DNA of 42,779 nucleotides from a virus. The first letter of the stretch is position 1. The number at the start of each line of letters is the position of its first letter. The translations under genes were made by a program, and so were the position numbers. The stretch lies in the IMG/VR virus record IMGVR_UViG_3300045988_181578. The stretch is one strand, 5' to 3'. Below the pieces are notes generated by a model. The model was not told the origin of the DNA, searched no databases, and worked only from the letters and a program-made list of their open reading frames with translations. Of this stretch, positions 1 to 42,779 are shown one piece after another.

Positions 1-277
1 GACCGTCAGATTGTCGGGCAGGGACGTAATGCCCGTGTCGCTCAAATCAAACGAATCGCCGACCGTCAGATTGTCGGGCAGTGACGTAATGCCCGTGCCA
101 CGCAAGTTCAGCCAACCGCCGACCGTCAGATTGTCGGGCAGGGACGTAATGCCCGTGTCGCTCAAATCCAACGAATCGCCGACCGTCAGATTGTCGGGCA
201 GTGACGTAATGCCCGTGCCGCTCAAGTTCAGCCAACCGCCGACCGTAAAATTGTTGGGCAGGGACGTAAAATCATAA
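1..277. repeat. 60-bp near-perfect direct tandem repeats (about 4.6 copies) encoding 20-aa LRR units
   Basis: The unit gaccgtcagattgtcgggcag(g/t)gacgtaatgcccgtg(t/c)cgctcaa(a/g)t(c/t)(a/c)a(a/g)c(g/c)aa(t/c)cgcc repeats head to tail. The same array is present at 42480-42779. Confidence 0.9.
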
Positions 278-312
278 TTATGTTTTGATAGCCATTTTTC
301 AGTTAATTTCAT
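1..312 (-). CDS. LRR protein, N-terminal part (ATG at about 312 then in-frame 20-aa LRR repeats); gene runs off the window start and continues at the window end
   Basis: Minus-strand reading gives MKLTEKWLSKHNYDFTSLPNNFTVGG then repeats of LDLSDTGITSLPDNLTVGGS. The RBS aaaggaaag precedes the ATG. The first 37 nt of the window are identical to the last 37 nt. Confidence 0.6.
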   Translation of the reverse strand, partial: MKLTEKWLSKHNYDFTSLPNNFTVGGWLNLSGTGITSLPDNLTVGDSLDLSDTGITSLPDNLTVGGWLNLRGTGITSLPDNLTVGDSFDLSDTGITSLPDNLTV

Positions 313-323
313 ACTCTTTCCTT

Positions 324-470
324 TCAATTCCAGCAATTTGACAAAAAAATGCACCCTGTCGGGTCTTTTCCAGCCGCTCTGTCGATTCGGGCGACTTCAG
401 CGTCAATCGCAAAAAATACGGCAAAAACCAAAAATGCCGCACTTGCAATTAAACAAACAACATCTTTCAT
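324..470 (-). CDS. small single-TM membrane protein (48 aa), co-oriented immediately upstream of the LRR gene
   Basis: MKDVVCLIASAAFLVFAVFFAIDAEVARIDRAAGKDPTGCIFLSNCWN with RBS aaggaagg 6-7 nt upstream. It is the internal start of track ORF 324..593. Confidence 0.35.
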   Translation of the reverse strand: MKDVVCLIASAAFLVFAVFFAIDAEVARIDRAAGKDPTGCIFLSNCWN

Positions 471-1380: not shown

Positions 1381-1605
1381 TCAACCTTTTTTTTCAGAAT
1401 CAATCAGCTCTTTGATTTCATCCCGCTTCATTCTGCCGACATAAAACAAACCGTCGGCAGTTTGCAAAACGGGGACTTGCGTTATGTTTTTCTTTGAAAG
1501 TTCTTCAGCAGGCATATCTTCAGCGTAAACAACGTTGAGGTCAGGAAACACCCTTTTTATTTCCCTGCATTTGAAACAATTACGAGTTGAAATCAGAGTT
1601 GCCAT
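1381..1605 (-). CDS. glutaredoxin-like / NrdH-like redoxin
   Basis: CFKC (CxxC) motif plus VPVLQTADGLFYVG in a thioredoxin-fold pattern; ATG with RBS aagga. The track's start is TTG at 1611. Confidence 0.55.
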   Translation of the reverse strand: MATLISTRNCFKCREIKRVFPDLNVVYAEDMPAEELSKKNITQVPVLQTADGLFYVGRMKRDEIKELIDSEKKG

Positions 1606-6761: not shown

Positions 6762-8213
6762 TTATCCCTCGTTTTTAAGCGGTTGCAAAGACAAGCGACC
6801 GTTTGCGGACAATTTCGCTTTTCCGCCGTCCAGCGTGTAGATTTCGGAAGCGTTGTTGTCCATCATAAATTTTTTGATGAGCAACTTGTTTTTTTCGTTT
6901 TTGTCATCATCCAATCGGATTGATTCGGCGAAAAACAATGCTTCGTTAAACCACTCGTGCGCGTCCTGATCGTCGATTTGGTCTTGTGAAGACAACATAA
7001 CCGCACCTGACGCATTGAACTTTTCAACCTCTTGATAGCACGCAAAGTCCTTTTTCATCAAAGACAGCGTTTCTTTGTTTATTTCTGGAGGCGTGTTGGA
7101 GGCGATTGCCTTTTCAAAATTCCGCAACGCCTCTTTGATTGCTTCCTGCATTTCGGGGATAATTCCGTAAACAGACGTATAAATTTCGGGCGAAAAACGT
7201 TCTTTCACTTCTTCAAAGCGTTTCTGTTCAATCAAGGACGCAATTACGCCGCGATTAAATGTGGTGTCCTTTTCCAAAGGCAAAAGCATTGAACTGATTA
7301 CAGCCGCTTCACGTCCGCAAATAAAGGAATTGTATTGGATTTGAAACAAATACTGCCATTGCAAACCGCGCGTTAAAGCATCTTCTTTTAACGCTTTGAA
7401 GTGCTGGATTGTCTTGCACTCCCAAACAGGATTCCGTTCTGTAATTGGACGCCCATTCACGTCGTCATACTGTTCTTTTTTTGAAACGGCGTATCCGTCT
7501 GGTGAACAGGAAGAAAAGGGGCTAACGTCGGGGCGTTTAATGAAGTCTTGACAACGCGTGATTTCAAAATCCACATTTTCACGCAAAGCCCATTCAACGT
7601 AAGATTCGGCGGCGTGTCCGTACACATTCAGTTCGTCGGGGATAGGCGGTTGACGGTATCCGTTTTTGATTTTGTGAAAAACAAGATAGCCCGTTGTATA
7701 CAACGGTTCGTTTAAAAACGAAGTGGCGGCGCGTTCCCCCATTATTTCTATTAACCGTTCTTTCGACACAAAGGATTTAATAACGGCGGCGATTTCAGAA
7801 CCGCCGATTGTCCCTTGTTTTTCGGACAGCCATTCGTCCGAGTTTTGAACAATGTTTCGCATCCGTCCGACGTTTTCCAAAATTTCTTTGCGCTTTTCGG
7901 CGGCGAAGTCTTCAAACGATTGTCCTTTTTCCCGCAGATAGTCTTTGAGCAAAACATTTTTACGGGATTCCAAATAGGCGCGCGTTTCGGCATCGACCAA
8001 ATCCAAGCCGTGATTCCACATTCCTTTGTCGTGAATGGCGGCGTGGCATTCGGCGCACAGCGGTAACAGGTTTTTAACGTCCCAGCGTAATAACTGATTA
8101 TTGCGCCCGATTAAATGGTGGACGTGTTCGGCGGGCTTACCGCACGGGCATTTCTGCCCGATACGCAAGCGCGGATATAACGAATCCAGTTCTTTTTCCA
8201 TTTCTTCACGCAT
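6762..8213 (-). CDS. HNH endonuclease domain fused to a YqaJ-like (lambda Exo-type PD-(D/E)XK) recombination exonuclease, plus an about 200-aa C-terminal region of unknown function
   Basis: HNH motif CPCGKPAEHVHHLIGRNN...LCAECHAAIH. YqaJ signature SDEWLSEKQGTIGGSEIAAVI with SPDGYAV and WECKT (D, ExK). Start taken at MREEMEK (RBS aggaagg), because the upstream 354-nt gene occupies the longer ORF's 5' part. Confidence 0.65.
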   Translation of the reverse strand: MREEMEKELDSLYPRLRIGQKCPCGKPAEHVHHLIGRNNQLLRWDVKNLLPLCAECHAAIHDKGMWNHGLDLVDAETRAYLESRKNVLLKDYLREKGQSFEDFAAEKRKEILENVGRMRNIVQNSDEWLSEKQGTIGGSEIAAVIKSFVSKERLIEIMGERAATSFLNEPLYTTGYLVFHKIKNGYRQPPIPDELNVYGHAAESYVEWALRENVDFEITRCQDFIKRPDVSPFSSCSPDGYAVSKKEQYDDVNGRPITERNPVWECKTIQHFKALKEDALTRGLQWQYLFQIQYNSFICGREAAVISSMLLPLEKDTTFNRGVIASLIEQKRFEEVKERFSPEIYTSVYGIIPEMQEAIKEALRNFEKAIASNTPPEINKETLSLMKKDFACYQEVEKFNASGAVMLSSQDQIDDQDAHEWFNEALFFAESIRLDDDKNEKNKLLIKKFMMDNNASEIYTLDGGKAKLSANGRLSLQPLKNEG

Positions 8214-8559
8214 TGTTTTCACCTTCCTCTGAAATGACGCCGTGTTCAAGCATCGTTCTTTTTCTGTTTCGACAACGGCGCATCGCGATATTATGCTTGC
8301 GGCGTTTATACCAATGATTTTTCCAAAAACGCGCCTTTCGCGCTTCCAACATTTTTTCTTTCCGCGACGGGAAAAGAATAAACTGGATTGTGCGGCGGGA
8401 AACATTGAACAGTTTAGCCAATCCTTTAATCGACGCGCCGTTGCACCACATCGTTTTGATGTTTTCCCGTTCTTCATCGGTCAATTTGACGCGGGCATCC
8501 TGTTCTTTCGGCACGCGCACCTTGTCGATATTGACGGCGGGGGCTTTTTTCTTTTCCAT
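8206..8559 (-). CDS. HTH DNA-binding protein with basic C-terminus
   Basis: IKGLAKLFNVSRRTIQFIL HTH. TAATG overlap with recT. Confidence 0.45.
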   Translation of the reverse strand: MEKKKAPAVNIDKVRVPKEQDARVKLTDEERENIKTMWCNGASIKGLAKLFNVSRRTIQFILFPSRKEKMLEARKARFWKNHWYKRRKHNIAMRRCRNRKRTMLEHGVISEEGENNA

Positions 8560-9668
8560 TATTTCACCCCTTTCCGCAGTTTTTTGTTAAAAGATTCAGA
8601 AACATTTTTTGACGCATCCGCGTAGCCCGCAGTTTCCAATCGGTCGCGCAGGTCATTAACGTACTTCATTTTTTTCAGCGTGTCTGCATCGTCCAAAGAC
8701 AACGACTCATCTGCATACGTTTCCAGCCTGTCCATAAACGTGGACAATTCCAAAATGACGGCAGGCGGTTCTGCATTTTCTTCCGACATTTCCATTTCTT
8801 CATCGGAAACATCGACGCTTTGCCCGTTTTCCTGCTCGCCTGTTTCGATTGACGGCGTTTCTGGTATAGGGGTAGCGGTCAATGCTTCAACGGGCGTTGT
8901 GGACGCAAATAAAGCGGTTTTTTCGCTTTGCACCTGAATGGCGGACTCGGCTTCGGGGACTTCATCGTCAAACATCGCCCGAATTTCAGAACGAATCTCA
9001 ATTTTTGCCATTGAGATTTTGAGGGCTTTTTTGAGCCCGCATTTCAGATACATATCGTTCGGAAAGAATTTCCAAGCGGGCGATTCTTTGCCGAACATTT
9101 TGCGCATCGACGCTTGTTTCGCCGCTTCCAGTTCCTCGAAAGAAAAAGTGTAAATTTTCGGGGAATAGCGGGCACACTTGACAAAAGCGTAAAACCCGAC
9201 AATCTTTTTACGTCCGAACGGATTCCCACGTTTCAAAACGAACGAGTCGCCCGCGGCGGATTCTGTCATTTCAAACGAATCGCCGTCAAACACAAGTCCC
9301 GCGTCCACTTCCAAACCGTTTTGACTCGCGACGTATAACAAGCCTTTATATGACGGTTCCGCCGTCATATTCCCGCTATTGTTGTAAAAATAGCAAAAAT
9401 CGCGTGAATCAAGCGGGATATTCCACGCCGCGACTTGTAAAAACGCCTTTTGCACCGATTCAGGCGTACAATCTAGCAGTTTTCCGCCCGTTTTCGCCGA
9501 CAAATCTTTAACACGGCAAAAATTATAAAATTCAACCGCGCGTTTTGTTAGCTCTATTTCGTCATATCCAAGACGAGCGGCGACGGCGGGAATAAACCCG
9601 CTTGATAACGGCGCGGGCAAAATAGCGGCGTTATTGTTTTTTATAACAATTTGTTTACTTTTTTCCAT
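8559..9668 (-). CDS. recT: RecT-family single-strand annealing protein
   Basis: GLEVDAGLVFDGDSFE...LKRGNPFGRKKIVGFYAFVKC...SPAWKFFPNDMYLKCGLKKALK matches the RecT pattern. Adjacent to the YqaJ-like exonuclease gene. RBS aaggaag. Confidence 0.8.
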   Translation of the reverse strand: MEKSKQIVIKNNNAAILPAPLSSGFIPAVAARLGYDEIELTKRAVEFYNFCRVKDLSAKTGGKLLDCTPESVQKAFLQVAAWNIPLDSRDFCYFYNNSGNMTAEPSYKGLLYVASQNGLEVDAGLVFDGDSFEMTESAAGDSFVLKRGNPFGRKKIVGFYAFVKCARYSPKIYTFSFEELEAAKQASMRKMFGKESPAWKFFPNDMYLKCGLKKALKISMAKIEIRSEIRAMFDDEVPEAESAIQVQSEKTALFASTTPVEALTATPIPETPSIETGEQENGQSVDVSDEEMEMSEENAEPPAVILELSTFMDRLETYADESLSLDDADTLKKMKYVNDLRDRLETAGYADASKNVSESFNKKLRKGVK

Positions 9669-28677: not shown

Positions 28678-29276
28678 ATGACTGTTTACGCATATTTACG
28701 GGTGTCATCTGTTTCTCAAGACGAACAAAATCAGCGGCAAGGTGTGGATGCTAAAGCCGTTGCTTTGAATGTTCACATCGACAAATACATTGTTGACAAA
28801 GTTTCGGGGACAAAAGAGCCGAAGCTCCGTAATCTTGGAAGCCTTGCCCGACGTTTGAAATCGGGCGATGTTGTTATTGTTTCGGAGTTGTCCCGCCTGT
28901 CCCGCCGTATATTCACGCTTTGCCGACTATTTGAAGACTTGCTTGAAAAGGGCGTTCGTGTTTACTCGGTGAAAGAAAACTTTGTTCTTGATGATTCGCC
29001 GCAGTCGAAAATGCTGATATTTTGTTTTGGGATGTCCGCTGAAATTGAACAACGTATGATTTCTGCTCGGACGCGGGAAGCTTTGGCGTATCGTAAACAA
29101 CAGGGCATCAAATTAGGACGTCCAGTAGGCGCAAAGACGAAAAAGCATAAGTTAGATGTTTACGCCGAAAAAATCGCCCTGTGGCTAAAAAAGGCGTTTC
29201 GCGCAGAAAGATTGCAAAACGGTGCAAGGTGTGTGAAAAAACGCTTCGCAAGTGGTTGCGTAAAACGAACGTTTAA
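28678..29276 (+). CDS. Gin/Hin/Cin-family serine DNA invertase; the HTH domain lies in the -1 frame after the A-run at 29187-29193
   Basis: YAYLRVSSVSQDEQNQRQ (Ser nucleophile), DKVSGTKEPKLRNLGSLARRLKSGDVVIVSELSRLSRR and MISARTREALAYRKQQGIKLGRP match the Gin catalytic domain. The -1 frame encodes KKGVSRRKIAKRCKVCEKTLRKWLRKTNV*, which matches the Gin HTH GIPRKQVALIYDVALSTLYKK. The 0 frame instead reads through into fibre cassette V2 (track ORF 28678..29571). Confidence 0.75.
29187..29193 (+). other. A_AAA_AAG heptamer at the invertase catalytic-domain/HTH junction (candidate -1 slippery site, or a homopolymer indel)
   Basis: cta aaa aag in the 0 frame. A -1 slip yields LWLKK-GVSRRKIAKR..., the exact frame that encodes the HTH. 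Confidence 0.5.
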
Positions 29277-29291
29277 TCTGCCGAACTTTAA
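29266..29291 (+). other. inversion crossover site A (core AACGTTTAATCTGCCGAAC)
   Basis: One of four copies of the about 19-bp core AACGTTTAAYSTGCCGAAY. Overlaps the invertase stop and the start of cassette V2. Confidence 0.55.
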
Positions 29292-29571
29292 TGGCAAAAC
29301 GGTGTGGCAACGAACAGATCATCAAGTTGGAATTCCGACTGTAGGTCAACTGCCGAATATTACGGGTGGGGTAAATATAGACCACGCAAACCTTCTAAAT
29401 GCGTTTGGGTGCTGTACCGCCGATTCTAATATAGGGCAATACTATGGTACGCAGTTAGAAAAACACCTGCAAAGATTGTTGATTGACGCTTCTAAATCAT
29501 CGTCAATTTATCAAAACGTTAATCTTGTCGTTCCAGCAAACAATTCTGTTGTGTTTTGTATACGATACTAA
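29266..29571 (+). other. silent tail-fibre C-terminal cassette V2 (TFNLPNFNGKTVWQ ... FCIRY*)
   Basis: Homologous to the C-terminal 112 aa of the expressed fibre (FN.PN.N, LPNITG, ASKSSSIY, VVP, FCIRY). Has no start codon of its own. Convergent with, and abutting, the fibre gene 3' end. Confidence 0.7.
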
Positions 29572-30500
29572 TATCTGATGCAAAAATGTATCACCCCAGA
29601 TGCAGGGACGACTTGCGTTTCTCCGTCTTTATAAATTGAACTTGAGCGCGACGCATTAAAATCTTGAGCTGTTTGTCCATCCCATACGTACGTCAAAGTA
29701 CAAGCCAAACCACCACCATCCTTATAAGTTCCGGTGTTTATAGCACCAGTTCCATTATACAAAACAGGGCGCCTACTATCTTGACTTGTACCTTGAGCTG
29801 TCCAACTGGCGGTGATATTTGGTAACCTACCAGCCAGTATTGTTCCAATAGAAAGCGTACTAGATTGAAACACCGTTTTATTGTTAAGATTCGGCACATT
29901 AAACGTTGTATTTCCGTCCCCTGCACCCCACGTTGTCCCGATGACATTGAACAGACGCGCGTAAGTGATGCGGGAAATAGCCGCGCCGTTGCAAATCAGA
30001 TAACCGTCGGGAGCGTCATTTGCAGGCCAAGTGATAATTATTCCTGTCGGAAGTCCCGCGTCAATAAAAGCCCAATGCACGCCGTCAAGATATTCGGGAT
30101 TTGTTAAAAAGTTAAACGTGTTGTTTTCGACAAGGGAATAAACCGCCGTCGGTTTTCCGCCGACAATCGCCCACAACAAAGCCCCCTGCGGATACCCGCC
30201 GATAGCGTCTGAAACTGCTTGATTGAACGAATATGTACCGCCGTTTTGAGCGAAGAAGTTATGTTGCGAAACGGTGTTAAAAAGACCGTTAAAGTCTTGC
30301 TGTTTCGGGGGAAGTCCCGATACCTGTGTCGGCAAAGGATTTTCAATTACGGGCATACGGGTAATGGCAGGAAAACCCTCTTGGAAAGATGCACGATTCG
30401 TCCCTGTTGCGCCGTTCGGAATAGCGTTAATGTTTTCGCTTGTCGCCTGTGCGGCAATCGGTTGTGGGATTACGACGGGGGTTGTATTTGAAGTCGCCAT
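29568..30500 (-). CDS. tail fibre protein (P2 gpH / Mu S-like); constant N-terminal part plus variable C-terminal cassette V1
   Basis: C-terminus TFNVPNLNNKTVFQ...ASRSSSIYKDGETQVVPASGVIHFCIRY. RBS aggag. Gene order W-J-I-H. Confidence 0.7.
   Translation of the reverse strand: MATSNTTPVVIPQPIAAQATSENINAIPNGATGTNRASFQEGFPAITRMPVIENPLPTQVSGLPPKQQDFNGLFNTVSQHNFFAQNGGTYSFNQAVSDAIGGYPQGALLWAIVGGKPTAVYSLVENNTFNFLTNPEYLDGVHWAFIDAGLPTGIIITWPANDAPDGYLICNGAAISRITYARLFNVIGTTWGAGDGNTTFNVPNLNNKTVFQSSTLSIGTILAGRLPNITASWTAQGTSQDSRRPVLYNGTGAINTGTYKDGGGLACTLTYVWDGQTAQDFNASRSSSIYKDGETQVVPASGVIHFCIRY
29887..29910 (-). other. inversion crossover site B inside the fibre gene at the constant/variable boundary
   Basis: Minus-strand acaACGTTTAATGTGCCGAATct encodes TFNVPN. 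Inverted relative to sites A and C. Confidence 0.55.
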
Positions 30501-31118
30501 TTATTTAACTCCTATGCTGTCTACGACAAAAACGCCGTTGTTAAAAGGTTTAAGTCCGCTTCCCTCGAAACCGAACGTTTCTTGCGGCGGAATCGGTGTA
30601 ATGGATGTAATTTTAACGCCAGACGGGCGCGGCAGAAAATCGTTTAATTGCAAAACGATTTCTTCTTCCGCCGTCGGAAAAAAGTCTAAAATGTACGTTA
30701 TGGACATATTCAAATTGTCCTGCACATAAGACTTGTTGTCTGGATGATTGAAGAAAATTTGCCGAATAAACGTGTTTACGTTTGAAAACGTCGGCGCGTG
30801 AGAGTTCTTATACAGTTTTGCGTTCAAAAGCAGTCTGTAAGACTCCGTCGGAATGGGGACAAGTTCGCCGTCGGCGTTCGTATACAAAGGACGTTCCAAA
30901 TTCAATAAAAATCCCCACAACGTCAAACCAAATTCGTTTGCCGTCTGAATGTTCAAAACGTCATCAATCCAGCGTTCCCAAAAATCAGAAACGGCATCAT
31001 CGTAAAAGTTTTGTTTAAACGCAATAAGGGCGTTAAAGTTCGGCGCGTTGTCGTACTGCCAAAGGATAACGTTTCTTGCATTAAAAGCGATTTCTTTTGC
31101 GACATCGTAATTCTTCAT
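30501..31118 (-). CDS. baseplate/tail protein (P2 gpI-like)
   Basis: Position between the J-like and fibre genes; ATGA coupling. 205 aa. Confidence 0.45.
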   Translation of the reverse strand: MKNYDVAKEIAFNARNVILWQYDNAPNFNALIAFKQNFYDDAVSDFWERWIDDVLNIQTANEFGLTLWGFLLNLERPLYTNADGELVPIPTESYRLLLNAKLYKNSHAPTFSNVNTFIRQIFFNHPDNKSYVQDNLNMSITYILDFFPTAEEEIVLQLNDFLPRPSGVKITSITPIPPQETFGFEGSGLKPFNNGVFVVDSIGVK

Positions 31119-32320
31119 TGAACCACCACCGAAACATCATCAGACGTTAAAAGCGCGCATTGTTTTGAAAGGATTGAAACGCCACTGACTGTTTGTTGTT
31201 CGCCTTTTTTACCCGCAACGACTTGAACAATTTTAATTTCAGGGATTGCTTCGGAAACGGCGGAAGCGATTTCAAAAGTGTTTACATTATTCCCGATTAC
31301 AAGCCCCTCGACGTTCGGATTTTTGTTTTGCGCCCAAGCGACAACGGCATCTTTTACATCTTGATAAATGTTGTTTCCCTGATATTTGTTCAAAGAAACC
31401 GTGATTGTCGTTTGAACTTCGATATATTCGGGGCGATTGAACGTAACTTGGACGTATCGGTCGTTTATCGCATCGTATCCTAAACCTGTTTCGGACTGTC
31501 CGCTAATCGCCGTGTATCCGCATCCGACGTTTTTTGCGGACGCAATGGCATTGTAAATGTCTTGAACAAGTCCGCCGTCCACAATGATGCACAAAGAGTG
31601 CGGAGCAACAGAAACACCGTTAACTTCAACTGCCGTGTCGTTATAATTCTCGTAATACCAAGAAGATATAACGCCGTTTACGCCCGACAGTTTTCCTTTG
31701 ATAGAATCGTTATATCCGTTCGCTAATTGTTGAGCGTACAAAATACGTTCTCGATAAGAAGAATCGCTTTCTTTTTCATATCCGATAATGGCGGGGTCGG
31801 GATTGTTTATCGTTTCCCACCCCGAAACGCTTGAAACGATTTCCGTTAATGTTCCGACGGGACAAGGAATTTGTCCGAGTTCAACCGACTGAAAATAAAC
31901 TTCCGCCTTGCCGTTTGTGTCCAGTTGAACCGTTCTTTCGCTTTCAAAAACATTTCCGTCCGTTGTCTTTGCTTGTGAACCCACAGGGATAATAGTCCCC
32001 ACAACGCCCGCCAAAGAAACAAGAACTTGCGTCGGTTGCGCATATTTTCGATAGACTAAAACTTTTGCGCCGATTGCGTCCAAAAAATCGCCCGATGCCG
32101 TTTGGATGTTTTGAGAATTTGCCATTAAAGCGACAACGCGGATTACCTGTTGACGCAATAACGTATCGTGTTCGATCAAACGACCCTGCGGCGTTGACGT
32201 TTCAATGGACAAATCCGCCCCGAAAATATCTTTATATTCGTTTTCAACGTCCGTTTTTACGTCGCCTGTATTCGGAATAACAACGCCCGTGGACGTAACA
32301 TAATCGTACAAATCAGCCAT
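31115..32320 (-). CDS. baseplate J-like protein (P2 gpJ / Mu gp47-like)
   Basis: 401 aa. Position W-J-I-H. Confidence 0.6.
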   Translation of the reverse strand: MADLYDYVTSTGVVIPNTGDVKTDVENEYKDIFGADLSIETSTPQGRLIEHDTLLRQQVIRVVALMANSQNIQTASGDFLDAIGAKVLVYRKYAQPTQVLVSLAGVVGTIIPVGSQAKTTDGNVFESERTVQLDTNGKAEVYFQSVELGQIPCPVGTLTEIVSSVSGWETINNPDPAIIGYEKESDSSYRERILYAQQLANGYNDSIKGKLSGVNGVISSWYYENYNDTAVEVNGVSVAPHSLCIIVDGGLVQDIYNAIASAKNVGCGYTAISGQSETGLGYDAINDRYVQVTFNRPEYIEVQTTITVSLNKYQGNNIYQDVKDAVVAWAQNKNPNVEGLVIGNNVNTFEIASAVSEAIPEIKIVQVVAGKKGEQQTVSGVSILSKQCALLTSDDVSVVVQ

Positions 32321-32322
32321 TT

Positions 32323-32667
32323 TTAACCCGCAATCGTTGTTTCACCGTAAACCGTCGAAACGTTCATTTCATATTTTAAAGTGCTGTCTTCAATTCGCAT
32401 TGCAAAATTCACCACAGAATTTACGCCGTTAATCGCTTCAACGTTATTAAAAATCTGTTTTCTAAACAAAAAAACGTCGGGCGGCGAATTGAAAACAGAG
32501 CCAAAATAATCAACGCCGACATTTGTAGCCAACTGACATTCGCTTAAAACAGTCTGAATCCGCTGTTTTATGACCAATGCCAAAGCGTCAATATCAGACA
32601 CCAACGCCAGATTGCCAAGCGCATCTAAATAAACGTCATTGTCCGAATTTGTCGCTATCGTTTTCAT
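32323..32667 (-). CDS. baseplate wedge protein (P2 gpW / GPW_gp25-like)
   Basis: 114 aa. Precedes the J-like gene. RBS aaagg. Confidence 0.5.
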   Translation of the reverse strand: MKTIATNSDNDVYLDALGNLALVSDIDALALVIKQRIQTVLSECQLATNVGVDYFGSVFNSPPDVFLFRKQIFNNVEAINGVNSVVNFAMRIEDSTLKYEMNVSTVYGETTIAG

Positions 32668-32739
32668 TGAACGCCTTTCATTTCGTTAAATCCTATAACA
32701 ATTTGAAATCTTTGTAAAGGCAAAATCACGGGACGAAAA

Positions 32740-32762
32740 ATCAACGTTTAACGTGCCGAATT
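32740..32762 (+). other. inversion crossover site C (AACGTTTAACGTGCCGAAT)
   Basis: Conserved core at the start of cassette V3. Confidence 0.55.
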
Positions 32763-33058
32763 TTAATAACAGAATTCCGCAGGGAAGTGGCAGCCGTGGA
32801 ACGGTCGGTGCGTATTTGTCGGAAAGCTTGCCAAATATCACAGGTACTTTTGGTGTCCCTAAATATGAAATAGTGAATGTAGGAACTGGAGCTTTTACAT
32901 CTACTGTGAATGGAACAGAATATAACATGTCATCACTCGAAGTTAACAGAAATGGGCACTTTTTCTATTTTTCAGCTTCCCGTTCATCTTCTACCTATCA
33001 AGACAATGCACCCGTTCAGCAAGCGGCGACGGTGGTTAATTTCTGCATCCGATATTAG
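32742..33058 (+). other. silent tail-fibre C-terminal cassette V3 (TFNVPNFNNRIPQG ... FCIRY*)
   Basis: GTG-initiated ORF in the track. Shares LPNITG, SASRSSSTY and FCIRY with the fibre C-terminus. Confidence 0.7.
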
Positions 33059-33357
33059 TATTTGATGCAGAAATTAATGTTAATTCCAGACGGTACAACA
33101 AGATTGTCGGAACGTGAGTAGGCGGACGACGAGCGGGATGCGTCAAAATTAAAAGCTCTGTTAGAATTCGTAGTCCCCGTAAGGTGAACATATTGTACGT
33201 CAATTCCGTTTAAAGCAAACGCCCCAGAAGCACTATACCACAAATTTCCACCTTGTTGAACATAGCCTGTTATTTTCGGCAAACTACCATTAAAGGATGT
33301 CCCCACAACCCCACCCTGCCAAACGGTATGATTGGTGGAGTTCGGCACATTAAACGT
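33055..33357 (-). other. silent tail-fibre C-terminal cassette V4 (TFNVPNSTNHTVWQ ... FCIKY*), convergent with V3
   Basis: Shares LPKITG, DASRSSSAY, VVP and FCIKY. A TAG stop lies immediately upstream of the conserved core. Confidence 0.7.
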
Positions 33358-33360
33358 TTT
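33339..33360 (-). other. inversion crossover site D
   Basis: Minus-strand aaAACGTTTAATGTGCCGAACtc. Confidence 0.55.
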
Positions 33361-33531
33361 TTTTGCTTTCCTAAAAAGACTTATTGATAAAAAGAACAGA
33401 TTGTTTTAACCTATAAGTAGTCAAATTTTTATAGATATAACGAAAATGAAAAATTACAACGTGAAAGCCAAGGAATGGCAACCGCTTTCAGACATTATTC
33501 ATGTAAACGTCTTTATAGAGGAAGCAGAATA

Positions 33532-36887: not shown

Positions 36888-37100
36888 TTAATCCTGACTG
36901 TTTGCGTGTATTTCCGCTTCTGTTTTTGCGCTAGACAATTCGTAATCCAAATACGCCAAGAAAGACCAACCGACAGACATTTTAATCGGTTCAATACTGA
37001 TCAACGCGTAACTTTTACGCCCGATTTTGCTTATCCGAAAAACGCCTGATTCCCAATAAGTCAGTTTATCCGTTTTGATTTTTTTCCATTTCAGTTTCAT
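36888..37100 (-). CDS. hypothetical protein (70 aa)
   Basis: RBS gaggga. MKLKWKKIKTDKLTYWESGVFRISKIGRK.... Confidence 0.4.
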   Translation of the reverse strand: MKLKWKKIKTDKLTYWESGVFRISKIGRKSYALISIEPIKMSVGWSFLAYLDYELSSAKTEAEIHANSQD

Positions 37101-37113
37101 TTTTTATTCCCTC

Positions 37114-37950
37114 TCAAAAAAGTGAAAATTGCCCGTTCTTTTCCTCTTTAAAAGCCGCCACGGGCTGTTTAACGGGCGGGGTAGGTTCTAACACCTTTTT
37201 GACGCTTTCAACGCCTGACGGGGCGTTTACTGGCGTTTCCTGTTCGTTTATAACCGGCAACGCTTTCGACTCGGCATATTTTACAAAATTCCTGAATTTC
37301 AGATAATTAAGCACATAAAACGGCGTATGCAATTCTTCCCATATTTCAAGCGTCAACGTGTCGCCTATGCAGACGATAGCGGGCGCCCCCAAAAGCGAAA
37401 GCGTTATATAGCACATATAAGCGCACCGATAGTCTATGTCTTGAGCTACCGTCAGCGATTGCGTTTGAAAGTTATACCCGTTTTCTTTCATCGTTTCCAA
37501 GAAAGCGACAATCATCGCGCCGCCGCCCGCCGCTGGTTCGTTTATGCCTACATATCCATTTTCGGCAATCGCCGCGTCAATCTGTTCTTTGTCAAAGGAC
37601 ATCTGGGCGCAAAGTCGCGCGACGCTGTACGGCGTGAAGAACTGCCCCGTCTTGCTATTAGACGCGCCGAGTTCTTCAAAACATTCACCAAGAAAATCGC
37701 CGAATTGAGCTTCAAAGCCTTTTGTCGTGATTGCCAACAGTTCGGGAAAGCGCGCCTGTTCGTCGGGTTCATACTTCCCAATCAAATCAAGATACTTCTT
37801 TTCCCGCTCCTGTTTAAAATCGACGGCGTTTGAAATGCTCATCGCCGCCATTGAAACAAAGTCGGTAAAGACCTGTTCGGGCGTATGTCGCCCTGCAATC
37901 ACATCAATCGTCTTGAGAAAGTCTTTTTTCGCCGAATCATACAACGTCAT
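37114..37950 (-). CDS. HsdM/N6-adenine-methyltransferase-like protein lacking a recognisable catalytic NPPF/Y motif
   Basis: GQFFTPYSVARL (motif X), GINEPAAGGGAMIVAF (motif I), and the HsdM-like VAQDIDYRCAYMCYITLSLLG...GDTL block. No motif IV follows before the stop. Confidence 0.55.
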   Translation of the reverse strand: MTLYDSAKKDFLKTIDVIAGRHTPEQVFTDFVSMAAMSISNAVDFKQEREKKYLDLIGKYEPDEQARFPELLAITTKGFEAQFGDFLGECFEELGASNSKTGQFFTPYSVARLCAQMSFDKEQIDAAIAENGYVGINEPAAGGGAMIVAFLETMKENGYNFQTQSLTVAQDIDYRCAYMCYITLSLLGAPAIVCIGDTLTLEIWEELHTPFYVLNYLKFRNFVKYAESKALPVINEQETPVNAPSGVESVKKVLEPTPPVKQPVAAFKEEKNGQFSLF

Positions 37951-39167: not shown

Positions 39168-39709
39168 TTTGCGGATGTCCGCCGAGTTGCGTCCGTGGGC
39201 TTGGGAACAGAACGAACGGAACGGTGGTTTTCGCGGGATAGACCAGACACAACAAATCCCGTTTTTTTTATGAAAGGTAAAACAATGAGCGAAAAAATAG
39301 AAATCGTGTTGAAAGACGAGGAAAGACAACCTTGCGAGGTGTGGACGCGTGAAATCCCATAAACGCGCGTCCTTAAAAAGTCATCTAAACGGGGGAACGC
39401 CCTTGCGGTCTATCCCGTGCTAATAAAAATGCCTAACGACTATCCCGAAAGGGAGTAGGTGCAAGCGCACCGAAACGGTGACAGCCGATTATATCGGTTA
39501 TGATATAGTCTAATCTATGCGGCGACGTATAGCAGTTCATAAGAGAACGGCTTTTCAGTAGCGAAGAGAAGTGAATAAAATCAAATGGTTATGGGTTATT
39601 TCCGCCCCGTTTCCGAATTCAATATCGGCAAGAAATCCGAATATGCGGAACGGGTGTGTTTCAAGGAATCTGTTTCAATGAAGCACGTTGAAACAGGGCA
39701 GGCGGCGGA
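39168..39709. other. 0.54 kb non-coding structured region
   Basis: No ORF over 25 codons. Several hairpins: atcccgaaagggag, ccgattatatcgg, and a 9-bp stem ctgtttcaa/ttgaaacag at 39670-39696. Confidence 0.4.
39234..39270 (+). terminator. weak rho-independent terminator
   Basis: Stem cgggat / atcccg followed by T8. Confidence 0.35.
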
Positions 39710-39913
39710 ATGAATGACTTAACTATTACCGCCATTGCTGGCGTGTTTGTTTCCGTAATTTCGTTTTTGTCCTACAAACTTGGACGTGAACAAGAGGGGC
39801 ATAAAAATGCGGAAAAAGAAAGCGATGCGATTAAAGAAGCAAAGCGACTGCGGGAGCGTTTAGACAATGACTTTGATTTGCAAAAAGAAGTCAAAGAACG
39901 TTTTTCTCGTTGA
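39710..39913 (+). CDS. small membrane protein (N-terminal TM, charged helical C-terminus)
   Basis: TITAIAGVFVSVISFLSY TM followed by a KE-rich tail. Confidence 0.45.
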   Translation: MNDLTITAIAGVFVSVISFLSYKLGREQEGHKNAEKESDAIKEAKRLRERLDNDFDLQKEVKERFSR

Positions 39914-40068: not shown

Positions 40069-40263
40069 ATGAAGCAATTTAAAGCCCGTACAGCGTTTCT
40101 TATGTTTCTGTGTGTCTTTTTGTTGTCTGGGTGTTCAAAACGCCTGTATGGCGGATTTTGCCTGCTTTATCAGCCTGTTTTTTTGGATTACAAAAATGAT
40201 ACGGATGAAACGATTAAACAGGTCGAAAAAAACAACGTCGTATATATGCGGTGTCAAAAATGA
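40069..40263 (+). CDS. small lipoprotein (lipobox L-S-G-C)
   Basis: MKQFKARTAFLMFLCVFLLSGCSK signal peptide with lipobox. RBS gaggtg. Confidence 0.55.
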   Translation: MKQFKARTAFLMFLCVFLLSGCSKRLYGGFCLLYQPVFLDYKNDTDETIKQVEKNNVVYMRCQK

Positions 40264-40408
40264 TTTTGTTTAATTTAAAAAGCCCTTCGGGAATAATCGC
40301 CGCCGTTGGTATTCGTTCCGAAACATACACGCCCACCAATGTAAATCGGTGGGACGTGATAACCTTCCAAAAGGACGGTAAGATTTTTACAACGTTCGGG
40401 CGGTTTTA

Positions 40409-40687
40409 TCCGATTGAAACACCGTCGTAAAAGTCTTTGTATTCAAAGAACTTTCCGTGGAACTCGTCCCCGTCTTCAATGGCTTTCAAAAATCGCCTTA
40501 AATTGTTAACGGTTGTTCGGACTTCGGAATAAAAGTTATCCCTCCAATACGATTCAAGAGTTTCATAAACTTTAACTCACGATTGGCTTTGTTGCCGTTT
40601 TGCCAGAGACTCCACGCCGATTTTTTGATTGTCGCAATCCTGCTTGTCCGTCGATACCCGCAAATATCCGTACACCGTCATTTTCAT
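40409..40687 (-). pseudogene. decayed serine recombinase (resolvase/invertase/integrase-type) N-terminal remnant
   Basis: MKMTVYGYLRVSTDKQDCDNQKIGVESLAKRQQSQS*VKVYETL...NNLRRFLKAIEDGDEF keeps the Y-x-R-V-S-T-x-x-Q nucleophile motif and the R..L..l..GD block, but has an in-frame TGA and has lost the D..SG and DRLGR motifs. ATGA overlap with the MT-A70 gene stop. Coordinates are approximate. Confidence 0.4.
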
Positions 40688-41238
40688 ATTTCCTTGTCAA
40701 ATTTTTCAGTTTCATTTCCCCAGCAATCCCAACCTACCCGATGCTGACGGGCAAATAGTTCGATTCGTTCCCCGCCGCAAAGACTTTCGATTAAAGAATA
40801 CTGTTCATCAGGTTTTCGGGAATGTTCACGAACAACGCCTTGAATAACATTCCTTGTCGATTTGTTAAGCACATGGGGATGCCCGCGCGTTCCGACAAGC
40901 AACAATTCGGAAGCGCAACGGAAAATATATCCAGTTCCGAAAGCGGTTTTCCCGTTCTTCGTCGTTTTATGCCAAGATGCGCCCGTCTTGTATTTAAACC
41001 CCCAAGCCGCCATTGTTTCCAAAGCTTCGGGCAACATTGGAAACGTCGCCCACATAAAGAGGAAACAGTCTTTGTCGGCAATGTCGATAACAGGCAAAGT
41101 CTTAATGTCATTTGTCGGCATACAAGAATAATGCCCTTCCGCTCCTTTTGCCGTGATTCCTTTTGACGAAAACGTTTTGAACTTCCATGGCGGGTCGGCA
41201 AGAATTACGCCATATTTTTTATTCGGGAACGGAATCAT
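40684..41238 (-). CDS. MT-A70-family N6-adenine DNA methyltransferase
   Basis: ILADPPWKF (DPPW catalytic motif). RBS aagga before MIPFPNKKYG. Confidence 0.8.
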   Translation of the reverse strand: MIPFPNKKYGVILADPPWKFKTFSSKGITAKGAEGHYSCMPTNDIKTLPVIDIADKDCFLFMWATFPMLPEALETMAAWGFKYKTGASWHKTTKNGKTAFGTGYIFRCASELLLVGTRGHPHVLNKSTRNVIQGVVREHSRKPDEQYSLIESLCGGERIELFARQHRVGWDCWGNETEKFDKEI

Positions 41239-41557
41239 TTTTTTTGTCCTTATATTCAAAAGAACGTCCTTTAGTTTTCTTTCCTTTCCCGATTATTTTC
41301 GCAACGGATGTTCCGTATTTTGACATTGCGTCGTGTACCGAATCGAAAACTTCATTTGTTTCCACACAAATAACGCGACGGGAACAGAAGCCCCCTTTAC
41401 GCTTTTTAGACGACGGAATCCGTTTTTTCATTTCTGCAATAACGCCGTCGGGTGTGATTTTTGAACACTTCAACAAAAAGTCGGCAACCGCCTGTTCGGG
41501 CGTATCAAAACCGATAGGCGCAACAGCCGCTTTTTTCAAAACAACAAGATATTTCAT
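41219..41557 (-). CDS. hypothetical protein
   Basis: RBS aagga. Overlaps the MT-A70 gene start by 20 nt. Confidence 0.45.
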   Translation of the reverse strand: MKYLVVLKKAAVAPIGFDTPEQAVADFLLKCSKITPDGVIAEMKKRIPSSKKRKGGFCSRRVICVETNEVFDSVHDAMSKYGTSVAKIIGKGKKTKGRSFEYKDKKNDSVPE

Positions 41558-41559
41558 CC

Positions 41560-41820
41560 TTATTTTTCCTTTTCAATCAATTTGAACGCATCCGCTCTTA
41601 AGTCGTCGATGCCGTTTACGATTTCGGATAAAGCGTCTTTAAGCCGCTCTATTTCTTCTTCTAATTGTCGGACAGGTGTTCGATTATTCCAAGCTTGCGC
41701 TTCTTTTCCCAAAAAAGAAAATTCAACAGATGCGCCACAAAACGGATTTGTGCATTCTACCCGACCTCTCTCAAGTCTTGCTTCACTTCCACAAAAAGGA
41801 CACGGTTTAAGTTCTTTCAT
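41560..41820 (-). CDS. Lar-like restriction alleviation protein (Zn-ribbon) with C-terminal coiled coil
   Basis: MKELKPCPFCGSEARLE...C..FC matches the Lar-family CPFCG motif. RBS aaaggaaag. Confidence 0.55.
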   Translation of the reverse strand: MKELKPCPFCGSEARLERGRVECTNPFCGASVEFSFLGKEAQAWNNRTPVRQLEEEIERLKDALSEIVNGIDDLRADAFKLIEKEK

Positions 41821-41862
41821 ATTCTTTCCTTTCGATAAAAAGGGGTGGAAGTCAAAAAACAC

Positions 41863-42004: not shown

Positions 42005-42779
42005 TTACCCGAAAAACTTTTTCAATTCACTGTTTCCATACTGCCCTTCCGTGATTTTAATAATTTCGGAAACAGTCATAGTTTCTTGAATTTTATCGCT
42101 GTTCGTTTCGACAAAATGACGTGTTCCCGCTTCGCAAGCACCCGTGATAACACGATACATTTTAATCGCTTCTTCTTTCGTCAAAACACTGTTTTTATGC
42201 AGATGCTTATACGCAGACGTATCGCGTTTGCCGATTTTGTACATCAAAGAAGCGCGTGCTTCTTCTATTGTTTCCCCGTGAGCGAATCTTTCGCCGTCAG
42301 TAACAATGAATTGAACTTTAAGACCGATTTTGACTTTCCAAACGTTCTTCTTTTGGGAAAGAACTTCGCAGAAAATTCCGTCAAAAATTCTATATTTGCC
42401 CCCTTTCCAAGACAAAAGATTTTCAATGTTGAAAGTCAATTTTTTGACTTTTTCTCTTTCTTTTTGAGTAATGCCCGTGCCGCACAAGTCCAGCGAACCG
42501 CCGACCGTCAGATTGTCGGGCAGTGACGTAATGCCCGTGCCGCTCAAGTTCAGCCAACCGCCGACCGTCAGATTGTTTGGCAGGGACGTAATTTTCGTGT
42601 CGCTCAAATCCAACGAACCGCCGACCGTCAGATTGTCGGGCAGGGACGTAATGCCCGTGTCGCTCAAATCAAACGAACCGCCGACCGTCAGATTGTCGGG
42701 CAGTGACGTAATGCCCGTGTCGCTCAAGTTCAGCCAACCGCCGACCGTCAGATTGTCGGGCAGGGACGTAATGCCCGTG
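42005..42779 (-). CDS. LRR protein, C-terminal part (LRR array plus about 160-aa non-repeat C-terminal domain); continues from the window start
   Basis: Track ORF 42005..42727 carries TSLPDNLTVGGSLDLSDTGI repeats. The frame stays open to the window edge. Confidence 0.6.
   Translation of the reverse strand, partial: TGITSLPDNLTVGGWLNLSDTGITSLPDNLTVGGSFDLSDTGITSLPDNLTVGGSLDLSDTKITSLPNNLTVGGWLNLSGTGITSLPDNLTVGGSLDLCGTGITQKEREKVKKLTFNIENLLSWKGGKYRIFDGIFCEVLSQKKNVWKVKIGLKVQFIVTDGERFAHGETIEEARASLMYKIGKRDTSAYKHLHKNSVLTKEEAIKMYRVITGACEAGTRHFVETNSDKIQETMTVSEIIKITEGQYGNSELKKFFG
42480..42779. repeat. 60-bp tandem repeats (5 copies), the same family as at 1-277
   Basis: Units are identical or near-identical to the window-start array. 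Confidence 0.9.

Follow-up and report, generated by a model that had tools for sequence, protein, structure and literature searches.

A probable internally deleted pseudogene of an Mpi-like small serine recombinase behind the MT-A70 methyltransferase gene of a phage genome

The 42,779-nt stretch of viral DNA analyzed here (IMG/VR record IMGVR_UViG_3300045988_181578; hereafter the window) very probably carries, on the minus strand at 40406-40697, an internally deleted and frame-disrupted pseudogene of a ~304-aa Mpi-like small serine recombinase, encoded by an accessory gene. The window copy retains its ribosome-binding site (RBS), codons 1-30 and the last ~55 codons, and has lost codons 31-250 (220 codons, ~650-660 nt, 72% of the protein) out of frame. 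In the relatives, the lost segment holds the SG and SELSRLGR motifs, helix E, a putative helix-turn-helix (HTH) and the larger part of the catalytic domain; the junction is marked by an 11-nt deletion and a stop codon. We correct the annotation of the locus to a pseudogene rather than an integration module, and the locus gives no evidence for lysogeny. The relic itself is ordinary and matters little, other than as a clean example of the death of a phage accessory gene.

A recombinase remnant and its relatives in sister phages

The MT-A70 DNA methyltransferase gene (40684-41259, minus strand; Pfam PF05063, 1.6e-33) lies directly upstream of the remnant and has 83% amino acid identity to its counterpart in one related phage (L001) and ~91% nucleotide identity to that in another (L172). 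The minus strand at 40687-40577 encodes 36 codons, MKMTVYGYLRVSTDKQDCDNQKIGVESLAKRQQSQS, opening with ATG AAA ATG ACG and ending at an in-frame TGA (40576-40574); past this TGA the frame carries on as VKVYETL...GDEFHGKFFEYKDFYDGVSIG for 56 codons, until TAA at 40408-40406, and the full peptide read through beyond the TGA is VKVYETLESYWRDNFYSEVRTTVNNLRRFLKAIEDGDEFHGKFFEYKDFYDGVSIG. The upstream ATG (40687-40685) overlaps the MT-A70 stop codon (40686-40684) as ATGA. All three features named in an earlier, sequence-only reading of this DNA (the minus-strand ORF, the in-frame TGA and the ATGA overlap) were thus borne out. The real recombinase start is the second ATG (40681-40679), as in all homologues, and the upstream ATG is specific to the window (ATATGAAAATG, vs. 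ATCTGAAAATG in L172). When phage and mobile-element contexts of the gene are aligned, homology begins ~20 nt 5′ of the ATG, and an RBS region (40682-40697, minus strand) moves along with the recombinase gene.

The 5′ piece of the remnant, codons 1-30 (MTVYGYLRVSTDKQDCDNQKIGVESLAKRQ; 40592-40681, minus strand), is identified by tblastn, Pfam and nucleotide identity. It contains the catalytic-serine motif YLRVST at codons 6-11, which follows the nucleophile pattern Y-x-R-V-S-T/S, and 28 of its 30 residues are identical to those of an intact recombinase in the sister phage L230 (residues 1-30 against 40681-40592, 93% identity, E 1e-13). The Pfam Resolvase profile PF00239 matches the 36-aa piece with 23.5 bits, just above the gathering cut-off of 23.3, at profile positions 1-31; coverage of the remnant amounts to 31-39 of 145 profile positions, and the 56-aa tail alone has no Pfam match. 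The N-terminal piece is a genuine serine-recombinase N-terminus, far past chance, and the proposal of a decayed serine recombinase is supported. The remnant lacks a complete catalytic domain, the putative HTH and an open frame, the frame being broken by the TGA, by an out-of-frame junction and by the 11-nt deletion.

A metagenome scan with the C-terminal 144 residues brought up two sister phage contigs with an uninterrupted 304-codon recombinase gene (L230, 3135-4049; L231, 3298-4212). In a tblastn search of the window with the L230 protein, residues 251-301 matched 40573-40421 (59% identity, E 1e-15) and residues 1-164 matched a second locus, 28678-29166 (51% identity, E 1e-46), and residues 31-250 had no counterpart near the remnant. 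The two remnant pieces are collinear and on the same strand relative to the orthologue. The 3′ piece (40409-40573, minus strand, with its stop at 40408-40406) corresponds to the last ~55 codons, the C-terminal module of the parent protein, as seen by tblastn, alignment and HMMER. The tail had been taken for a catalytic part that keeps an R..L..GD spacing, but it did not align to a 201-aa family member by BLASTP, its GD lies 7 residues away from that of the family by our own count, and it aligns instead to the extreme C-terminus of the 304-aa orthologue.

A further relative, L172 (IMGVR_UViG_3300045988_182280), is a 42.5-kb contig that is ~87-96% identical to the window across the remnant region. 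At the same locus, between the MT-A70 gene and a conserved 59-codon ORF, it has a complete recombinase coding sequence that is split by an inversion. Related phages with the gene undeleted, which the sequence-only reading had suggested looking for, are thus found both as uninterrupted copies (L230/L231) and at the very same position (L172). A 280-codon ORF in L172 runs from recombinase codon 12 through the full catalytic domain to ...EIKPIVRLSDFKVYKSIRSLWYDNFSKELNPTIYNLKKLAECIHNGDEFHGKFFEFKDFYDGVSIG*, adjoining the conserved 59-codon ORF, and its C-terminus matches the window tail; recombinase codons 1-11 follow the MT-A70 gene, 2 kb off and inverted. With the inversion undone at its CGACGG overlaps, the recombinase becomes whole again, and so does a glutaredoxin-like gene that is intact in the window (1384-1605). 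Against the gene reconstructed in this way, blastn aligned window positions 40844-40596 with 92% and 40473-40350 with 90% nucleotide identity.

In this rearranged part of L172 (4156-7068), the recombinase is split at codon 11/12 and the other breakpoint is within the glutaredoxin/NrdH-like gene, with the 6-nt CGACGG overlaps. The gene order of L172 requires a second breakpoint pair (604/605 and 1925/1926 in the window). A site-specific origin of these rearrangements was considered and found no support: just 6 nt and 2 nt are common to the junctions, whose sites are dissimilar, and GACGG is frequent in the window (3.7 per kb). The tail-fibre invertase of L172 is truncated at residue 115, and with the other gene split by inversion, both recombinases of L172 are therefore disrupted. 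In L001, which was found via its MT-A70 gene, three unrelated ORFs occupy the position of the remnant. Four sister genomes and the window thus present four states of the gene: intact, inversion-split, internally deleted and absent.

Deletion, decay and the origin of the window copy

The TGA is not the primary lesion; ~660 nt are missing. The deletion junction is an 18-nt stretch (40574-40591, minus strand) that includes the TGA and adjoins the 11-nt deletion. By alignment and frame-3 translation it reads KTATKPIVS, against TTEIKPIVRLSDF in L172/L230, and represents the remains of parental ...TTEIKPIV... in a shifted frame. The tail aligns codon by codon to its relatives with a single 11-nt gap. 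Reading of the TGA as a sense codon was considered and dropped: the MT-A70 frame also terminates at TGA, and the missing 220 codons account for the lesion.

The sequence-only reading had held out the alternative that the TGA is a sequencing error and that a full ORF exists; in its broader form, this would make the whole lesion a product of sequencing or assembly, with a full ORF in the real phage. In one homopolymer at least, the window does differ in length from its relatives (A6 vs. A7, in an invertase gene). Nevertheless, the sequencing-error alternative fails because 220 codons are absent, which no point error produces; in addition, the junction lies at an imperfect repeat of 12-13 nt, too short for assembly collapse, and is accompanied by a separate 11-nt deletion. 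We therefore consider an artefact extremely improbable.

One observation weighs against the pseudogene reading, in that the decay is uneven. The 122 nt at 40474-40595 have ~60% identity to the relatives (our own count from the alignment), in contrast to ~90% in the flanks, and no blastn block between the window and the reconstructed L172 gene aligned across them. Given this unevenness, the ancestor of the window copy is read as having carried a divergent (mosaic) allele, which was presumably functional before the deletion. Within the C-terminal module, differences from L172/L230 are conservative substitutions. The decay is a recent, structural event rather than a gradual process.

For the ancestor of the window copy, the exact endpoints of the deletion are taken from other alleles. 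In the relatives, these endpoints coincide with imperfect direct repeats, TTTGGCAAAACG near codon 27 and TTTGGAACAACAG near codon 240, and the large deletion may have arisen by short-homology recombination between TTTGGCAAAACG and TTTGGAACAACAG. Such an event is plausible because the phage encodes RecT (8559-9668) and a YqaJ-domain protein (6762-8477), the latter a YqaJ exonuclease. The retained RBS may still drive translation of the 36-codon ORF, whose product would be unable to form a recombinase and is probably inert. The gene appears to have been dispensable, because a paralogous invertase is encoded at 28678 and because sister phages have lost or broken the gene independently.

Could the remnant have been kept for a function, as a 36-aa peptide, as signals for MT-A70 translational coupling or termination, or as hairpins that end the convergent operons? 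Its RBS and start are intact, its flanks are ~90% conserved, and a hairpin links its last codons to the sequence downstream, with a 9-bp terminator-like stem at 40353-40332 and folding z-scores of about -2. The neighboring genes, however, are equally conserved, so that no extra constraint is evident; L230, L231 and L001 lack any of the remnant at the MT-A70 position; and the peptide would lack every dimerization and DNA-binding element, as read from an alignment with gamma-delta resolvase. We regard retention for a function as barely credible.

Homologues of the 5′ piece also occur outside phages. Queried with the read-through peptide, a word-indexed search gave 23 proteins; each starts with MTVYGYLRVSTDKQDC(D/E)NQK and is a short or frame-shifted fragment, and their contigs are relaxase- or T4SS-bearing mobilizable elements. 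These elements carry a 201-aa resolvase gene after the relaxase gene, beside restriction-modification genes. In a genome scan, this resolvase family turned up overwhelmingly in uncultured Alphaproteobacteria of gut and rumen, and a single genome often had several copies. Counted from the ATG, the window is identical to the element resolvase genes (L085, L088) at ~74 of 75 nt, after which similarity falls. Searches by megablast and blastn against cultured phages and plasmids, and for an exact 44-mer in IMG/VR, returned nothing. On the evidence of the element homologues, uncultured gut Alphaproteobacteria are the likely host.

Mobilizable and conjugative elements of gut Alphaproteobacteria often bear 5′ stubs of the Mpi-like resolvase gene that end near codons 30, 50 and 52 and are fused to unrelated cargo (L081, 6001-7763; L167, 6001-6174; L171, 708-932). 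L081 has one stub and one full copy, in direct orientation, on either side of a 0.9-kb insert that contains two reversed genes. A crossover site within the 5′ coding region of the recombinase was considered as an explanation for the abundance of 5′ stubs in databases, and the idea was dropped because synonymous positions are not unusually conserved (third-codon positions in the 5′ 80 nt show no more conservation than those in the rest of the catalytic domain); it also fails in that the stubs end at varied codons (~30, 41, 50, 52). An initial reading of the remnant as a bare 5′ stub from a host element, ending near 40575, was superseded when L172, L230 and L231 showed the tail to be the gene's own 3′ end.

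The same observations bear on the possibility that the fragment was captured straight from a host mobilizable element, with no decay in place. Its first 75 nt are ~99% identical to resolvase genes of relaxase-bearing gut alphaproteobacterial elements, and the host elements themselves carry many 5′ stubs of that gene. Yet the 5′ and 3′ ends of one long-form gene are both present in the right order and orientation, L172 carries the gene in full at this locus, between the same flanks, and the 5′ end is in any case strongly conserved in the closest family members. Direct capture is thus highly unlikely.

The position of the recombinase gene varies among the sister phages. In L230/L231 it follows a homologue of the N6-methyltransferase encoded at 37114-37950 in the window, and the MT-A70 gene leads straight to the conserved small ORF. 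L172 and the window have the recombinase gene behind MT-A70, and their N6-methyltransferase slot is empty. Each of the two slots (37097-37136 and 40684-40697 in the window) begins where a DNA methyltransferase gene, N6_Mtase or MT-A70, reaches its stop codon. The insertion in L231 consists of the recombinase gene alone (~920 nt), with stop-RBS-start repeats on either side (TGAAAAGGGAAAGAA... and TGAAAGGAAAGAA...). Recombination between the conserved linkers at gene boundaries yields such a pattern, and the gene is accordingly read as a shuffled accessory cassette: the recombinase behaves as a single-gene accessory cassette that occupies different slots in sister phages. A self-mobile single-gene element that inserts just downstream of phage DNA-methyltransferase genes, the window relic being a decayed copy, is unlikely, though a lone ~920-nt insertion with short flanking repeats, after N6-MTase in L230/L231 or MT-A70 in L172 and the window, is the kind of arrangement that would suggest it.

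Surroundings of the remnant and a second recombinase

The sequence-only reading had taken the remnant for the possible trace of a lost integration or resolution module, built on a large serine integrase or resolvase, with 39168-39709 as what could be a decayed attachment or resolution site. Consistent with such a history, a serine-recombinase relic stands at the end of an early operon, and no tyrosine integrase was found among the 29 ORFs scanned against Pfam (a set that took in the largest ORFs of the window). The supposed site, however, reads as a different kind of element. The stretch 39168-39709 is a predicted group I intron in a spanin-like gene, with 39256-39532 matching Rfam RF00028 along the whole length of the model, the J8/7-P7 sequence being well aligned, at 45.3 bits (E ~3e-10), just under the gathering score of 50, and L172 lacks the inserted stretch. 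The predicted intron itself is placed at 39284-39713 (plus strand), within a 72-aa spanin-like gene that starts at 39270.

L172 has the two flanks of the window's ~425-nt insertion joined directly to each other (AAAACAATGAATGAT), and the intron-less allele reads ATGAAAGGTAAAACAATGAATGAT... (MKGKTMNDL...), restoring one ORF. The predicted intron would interrupt the 72-codon membrane/coiled-coil, spanin-like gene (39270-39913, plus strand) after about codon 6, between MKGKTM and NDL..., with boundaries that are ambiguous by a 5-nt repeat (AATGA) and do not obviously satisfy the canonical U/G rule. It contains no homing-endonuclease ORF. Next downstream is an Rz-like lipoprotein gene (40069-40263), in the lysis region.

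The block that adjoins the remnant is likewise a gene and not an attachment site. A conserved 59-codon ORF (40251-40430, plus strand), downstream of the spanin-like pair and convergent on the remnant, overlaps the last 22 nt of the remnant and is open in five of five related phages despite ~50% amino acid divergence. It follows the pattern MxMxLFxLKSPxGIxxAVGxxSE...FxQDGKIxTxFG and has no Pfam or PHROG match. A tRNA scan found no tRNA, and no att-like core was found in the loci compared. Further against the lost module, the intact orthologue is a 304-aa protein with PF00239 as its only domain, lacking those of large serine recombinases, and it scores far under the cut-offs of the CcrA/CcrC models, as the paralogous invertase of the window does with XisF; in sister phages, the gene is a lone cassette in varied slots. 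Taken together, these points leave a lost integration or resolution module with next to no probability.

The accompanying statement that the window has no intact integrase also needs revision. A paralogous Mpi-like DNA invertase at 28678-29276 (plus strand; PF00239, 4.3e-30) is essentially intact, bar a 1-nt homopolymer frameshift. In the window, the ORF runs from 28678 to 29571 and encodes a complete Resolvase domain; according to relatives, the true gene has 199 codons and ends at 29276. The protein is 51% identical to the L230 recombinase (E 1e-46) and scores 194 bits with NF009949, against 33 bits, far under the cut-off, with the XisF model. The frameshift lies in a run of six A (29187-29192), which is A7 in two relatives (L224, L225) that have one continuous 199-codon ORF; it removes the HTH of the invertase, and the ORF runs into a silent fibre cassette. 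A programmed -1 frameshift at A_AAA_AAG was rejected, given the A7 run and single ORF of the relatives. Possible sources of the A6 run are a sequencing error in the homopolymer, a true mutation and slippage.

Beside this invertase are four copies of a ~20-26-nt site, AACGTTTAA(T/C)(G/C)TGCCGAA, at 29262-29287 (plus), 29880-29916 (minus), 32727-32774 (plus) and 33339-33364 (minus), together with four alternative fibre C-terminal cassettes at 29288-29571 (plus), 29568-29880 (minus), 32774-33058 (plus) and 33055-33339 (minus). All four cassettes start with TFN(V/L)PN and end with ..SRSSS.Y...CI(R/K)Y. The whole forms a predicted multi-site tail-fibre inversion system at 28678-33371. Unusually, sites 2 and 3 enclose the constant fibre part together with the DUF2612 and baseplate-J genes. 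This segment is oriented opposite to the rest of the structural module in the window and has the other orientation in the L172 phage. An Mpi-like invertase beside four alternative tail-fibre tips suggests, from sequence, a switchable host range. The predicted group I intron in a lysis-cassette gene and the tail-fibre system have more practical value than the relic, and so have the pointer to the host and the long-form recombinase subfamily.

Among the products of the early region (41219-41862, 37114-37950) are MT-A70 and N6_Mtase, both of them orphan DNA methyltransferases, and a Lar-like protein of restriction alleviation (41560-41862). The Lar-like protein, the two methyltransferases, RecT and the YqaJ-domain protein together make up a toolkit for anti-restriction and recombination. 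Both ends of the window (1-389 and 42383-42771) consist of 60-nt tandem repeats that belong to one leucine-rich-repeat-like gene (42005-42727 and beyond). The end regions 42016-41812 and 605-324 are adjacent in L172, which lacks that gene. This makes it probable that the window is a complete genome, circularly permuted and broken inside the repeat.

The parent recombinase and its place among known systems

Three parts make up the intact 304-aa parent: a resolvase/invertase catalytic domain at the N-terminus, a divergent stretch behind it and, at the C-terminus, a rare module of ~55 aa. Its sole Pfam match at E <= 1 is PF00239 (4e-33, residues 3-145), PHROGs assigns it to phrog_125 (DNA invertase), and the best solved structures, gamma-delta resolvase and Gin, cover the catalytic domain end to end (E ~3e-9). 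The best NCBIfam model is NF009949, the Mpi family, with 215.7 bits over residues 3-162 (model positions 2-160 of 203); given an equivalog cut-off of 272 bits for this ~200-aa model, the parent is an Mpi relative, not an equivalog. CcrA/CcrC models score 27-29 bits, far under cut-offs (375-900 for Ccr/XisF). The putative HTH was read by eye at about residues 175-200 of the orthologue, and falls within the deleted segment.

The C-terminal module has no Pfam or PHROGs match, and a word-indexed protein search with the C-terminal 144 aa found nothing. HMMER with the window tail matched four proteins among 1.84 billion representatives, including a 287-aa recombinase that ends in the window-tail module (P0025, E 1e-6) and a free-standing 79-aa form of the module (P0026). 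Hence, the module is a real but rare conserved domain. A likeness between the module and the upstream 112-aa protein was considered, and no similarity was found. The long-form recombinase with its unannotated C-terminal module constitutes a small undescribed subfamily. In the sequence around the L230 copy, no convincing inverted-repeat pair was found about the intact gene, nor did the deleted gene yield an assignable recombination site, enhancer or target.

The Mpi invertases (NF009949) belong to the closest known systems. According to PMC4747536, citing Coyne et al. (2003), 13 regions of Bacteroides fragilis are inverted by the serine recombinase Mpi. The Mpi family is the top family for the parent, which shares with it the N-terminal catalytic domain and the small size; NF009949 scores are 216 bits for the parent, 194 for the tail-fibre invertase of the window and 248 for the element resolvases, all below 272. 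In place of the short HTH tail of Mpi invertases, however, the parent has a longer C-terminus with the additional ~55-aa module.

The catalytic domain of the orthologue also aligns end to end with Gin/Hin/Cin invertases and gamma-delta/Tn3 resolvases (PF00239; PDB 1zr2, 4m6f, 5cy1), whereas the window remnant retains just the strand-1 and Ser-motif region. Gin in Mu and Cin in P1 adjoin alternative tail-fibre C-terminal cassettes, and it is the paralogue at 28678 that, like them, adjoins such cassettes. With the accessory ("moron"-like) cassettes of phages, the recombinase gene shares variable slots, stop-RBS-start repeats, and independent loss or breakage in L001, L172 and the window; it differs in that both of its slots follow a DNA methyltransferase gene. 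With large serine integrases (phiC31, Bxb1, CcrA/B, XisF), it has in common only the PF00239 fold and the YxRVST nucleophile motif. Those proteins exceed 400 aa, whereas the parent has 304 aa and lacks the recombinase domain (PF07508), the zinc ribbon and the coiled coil; it belongs with the small, Mpi-like invertases/resolvases and not with the large serine integrases.
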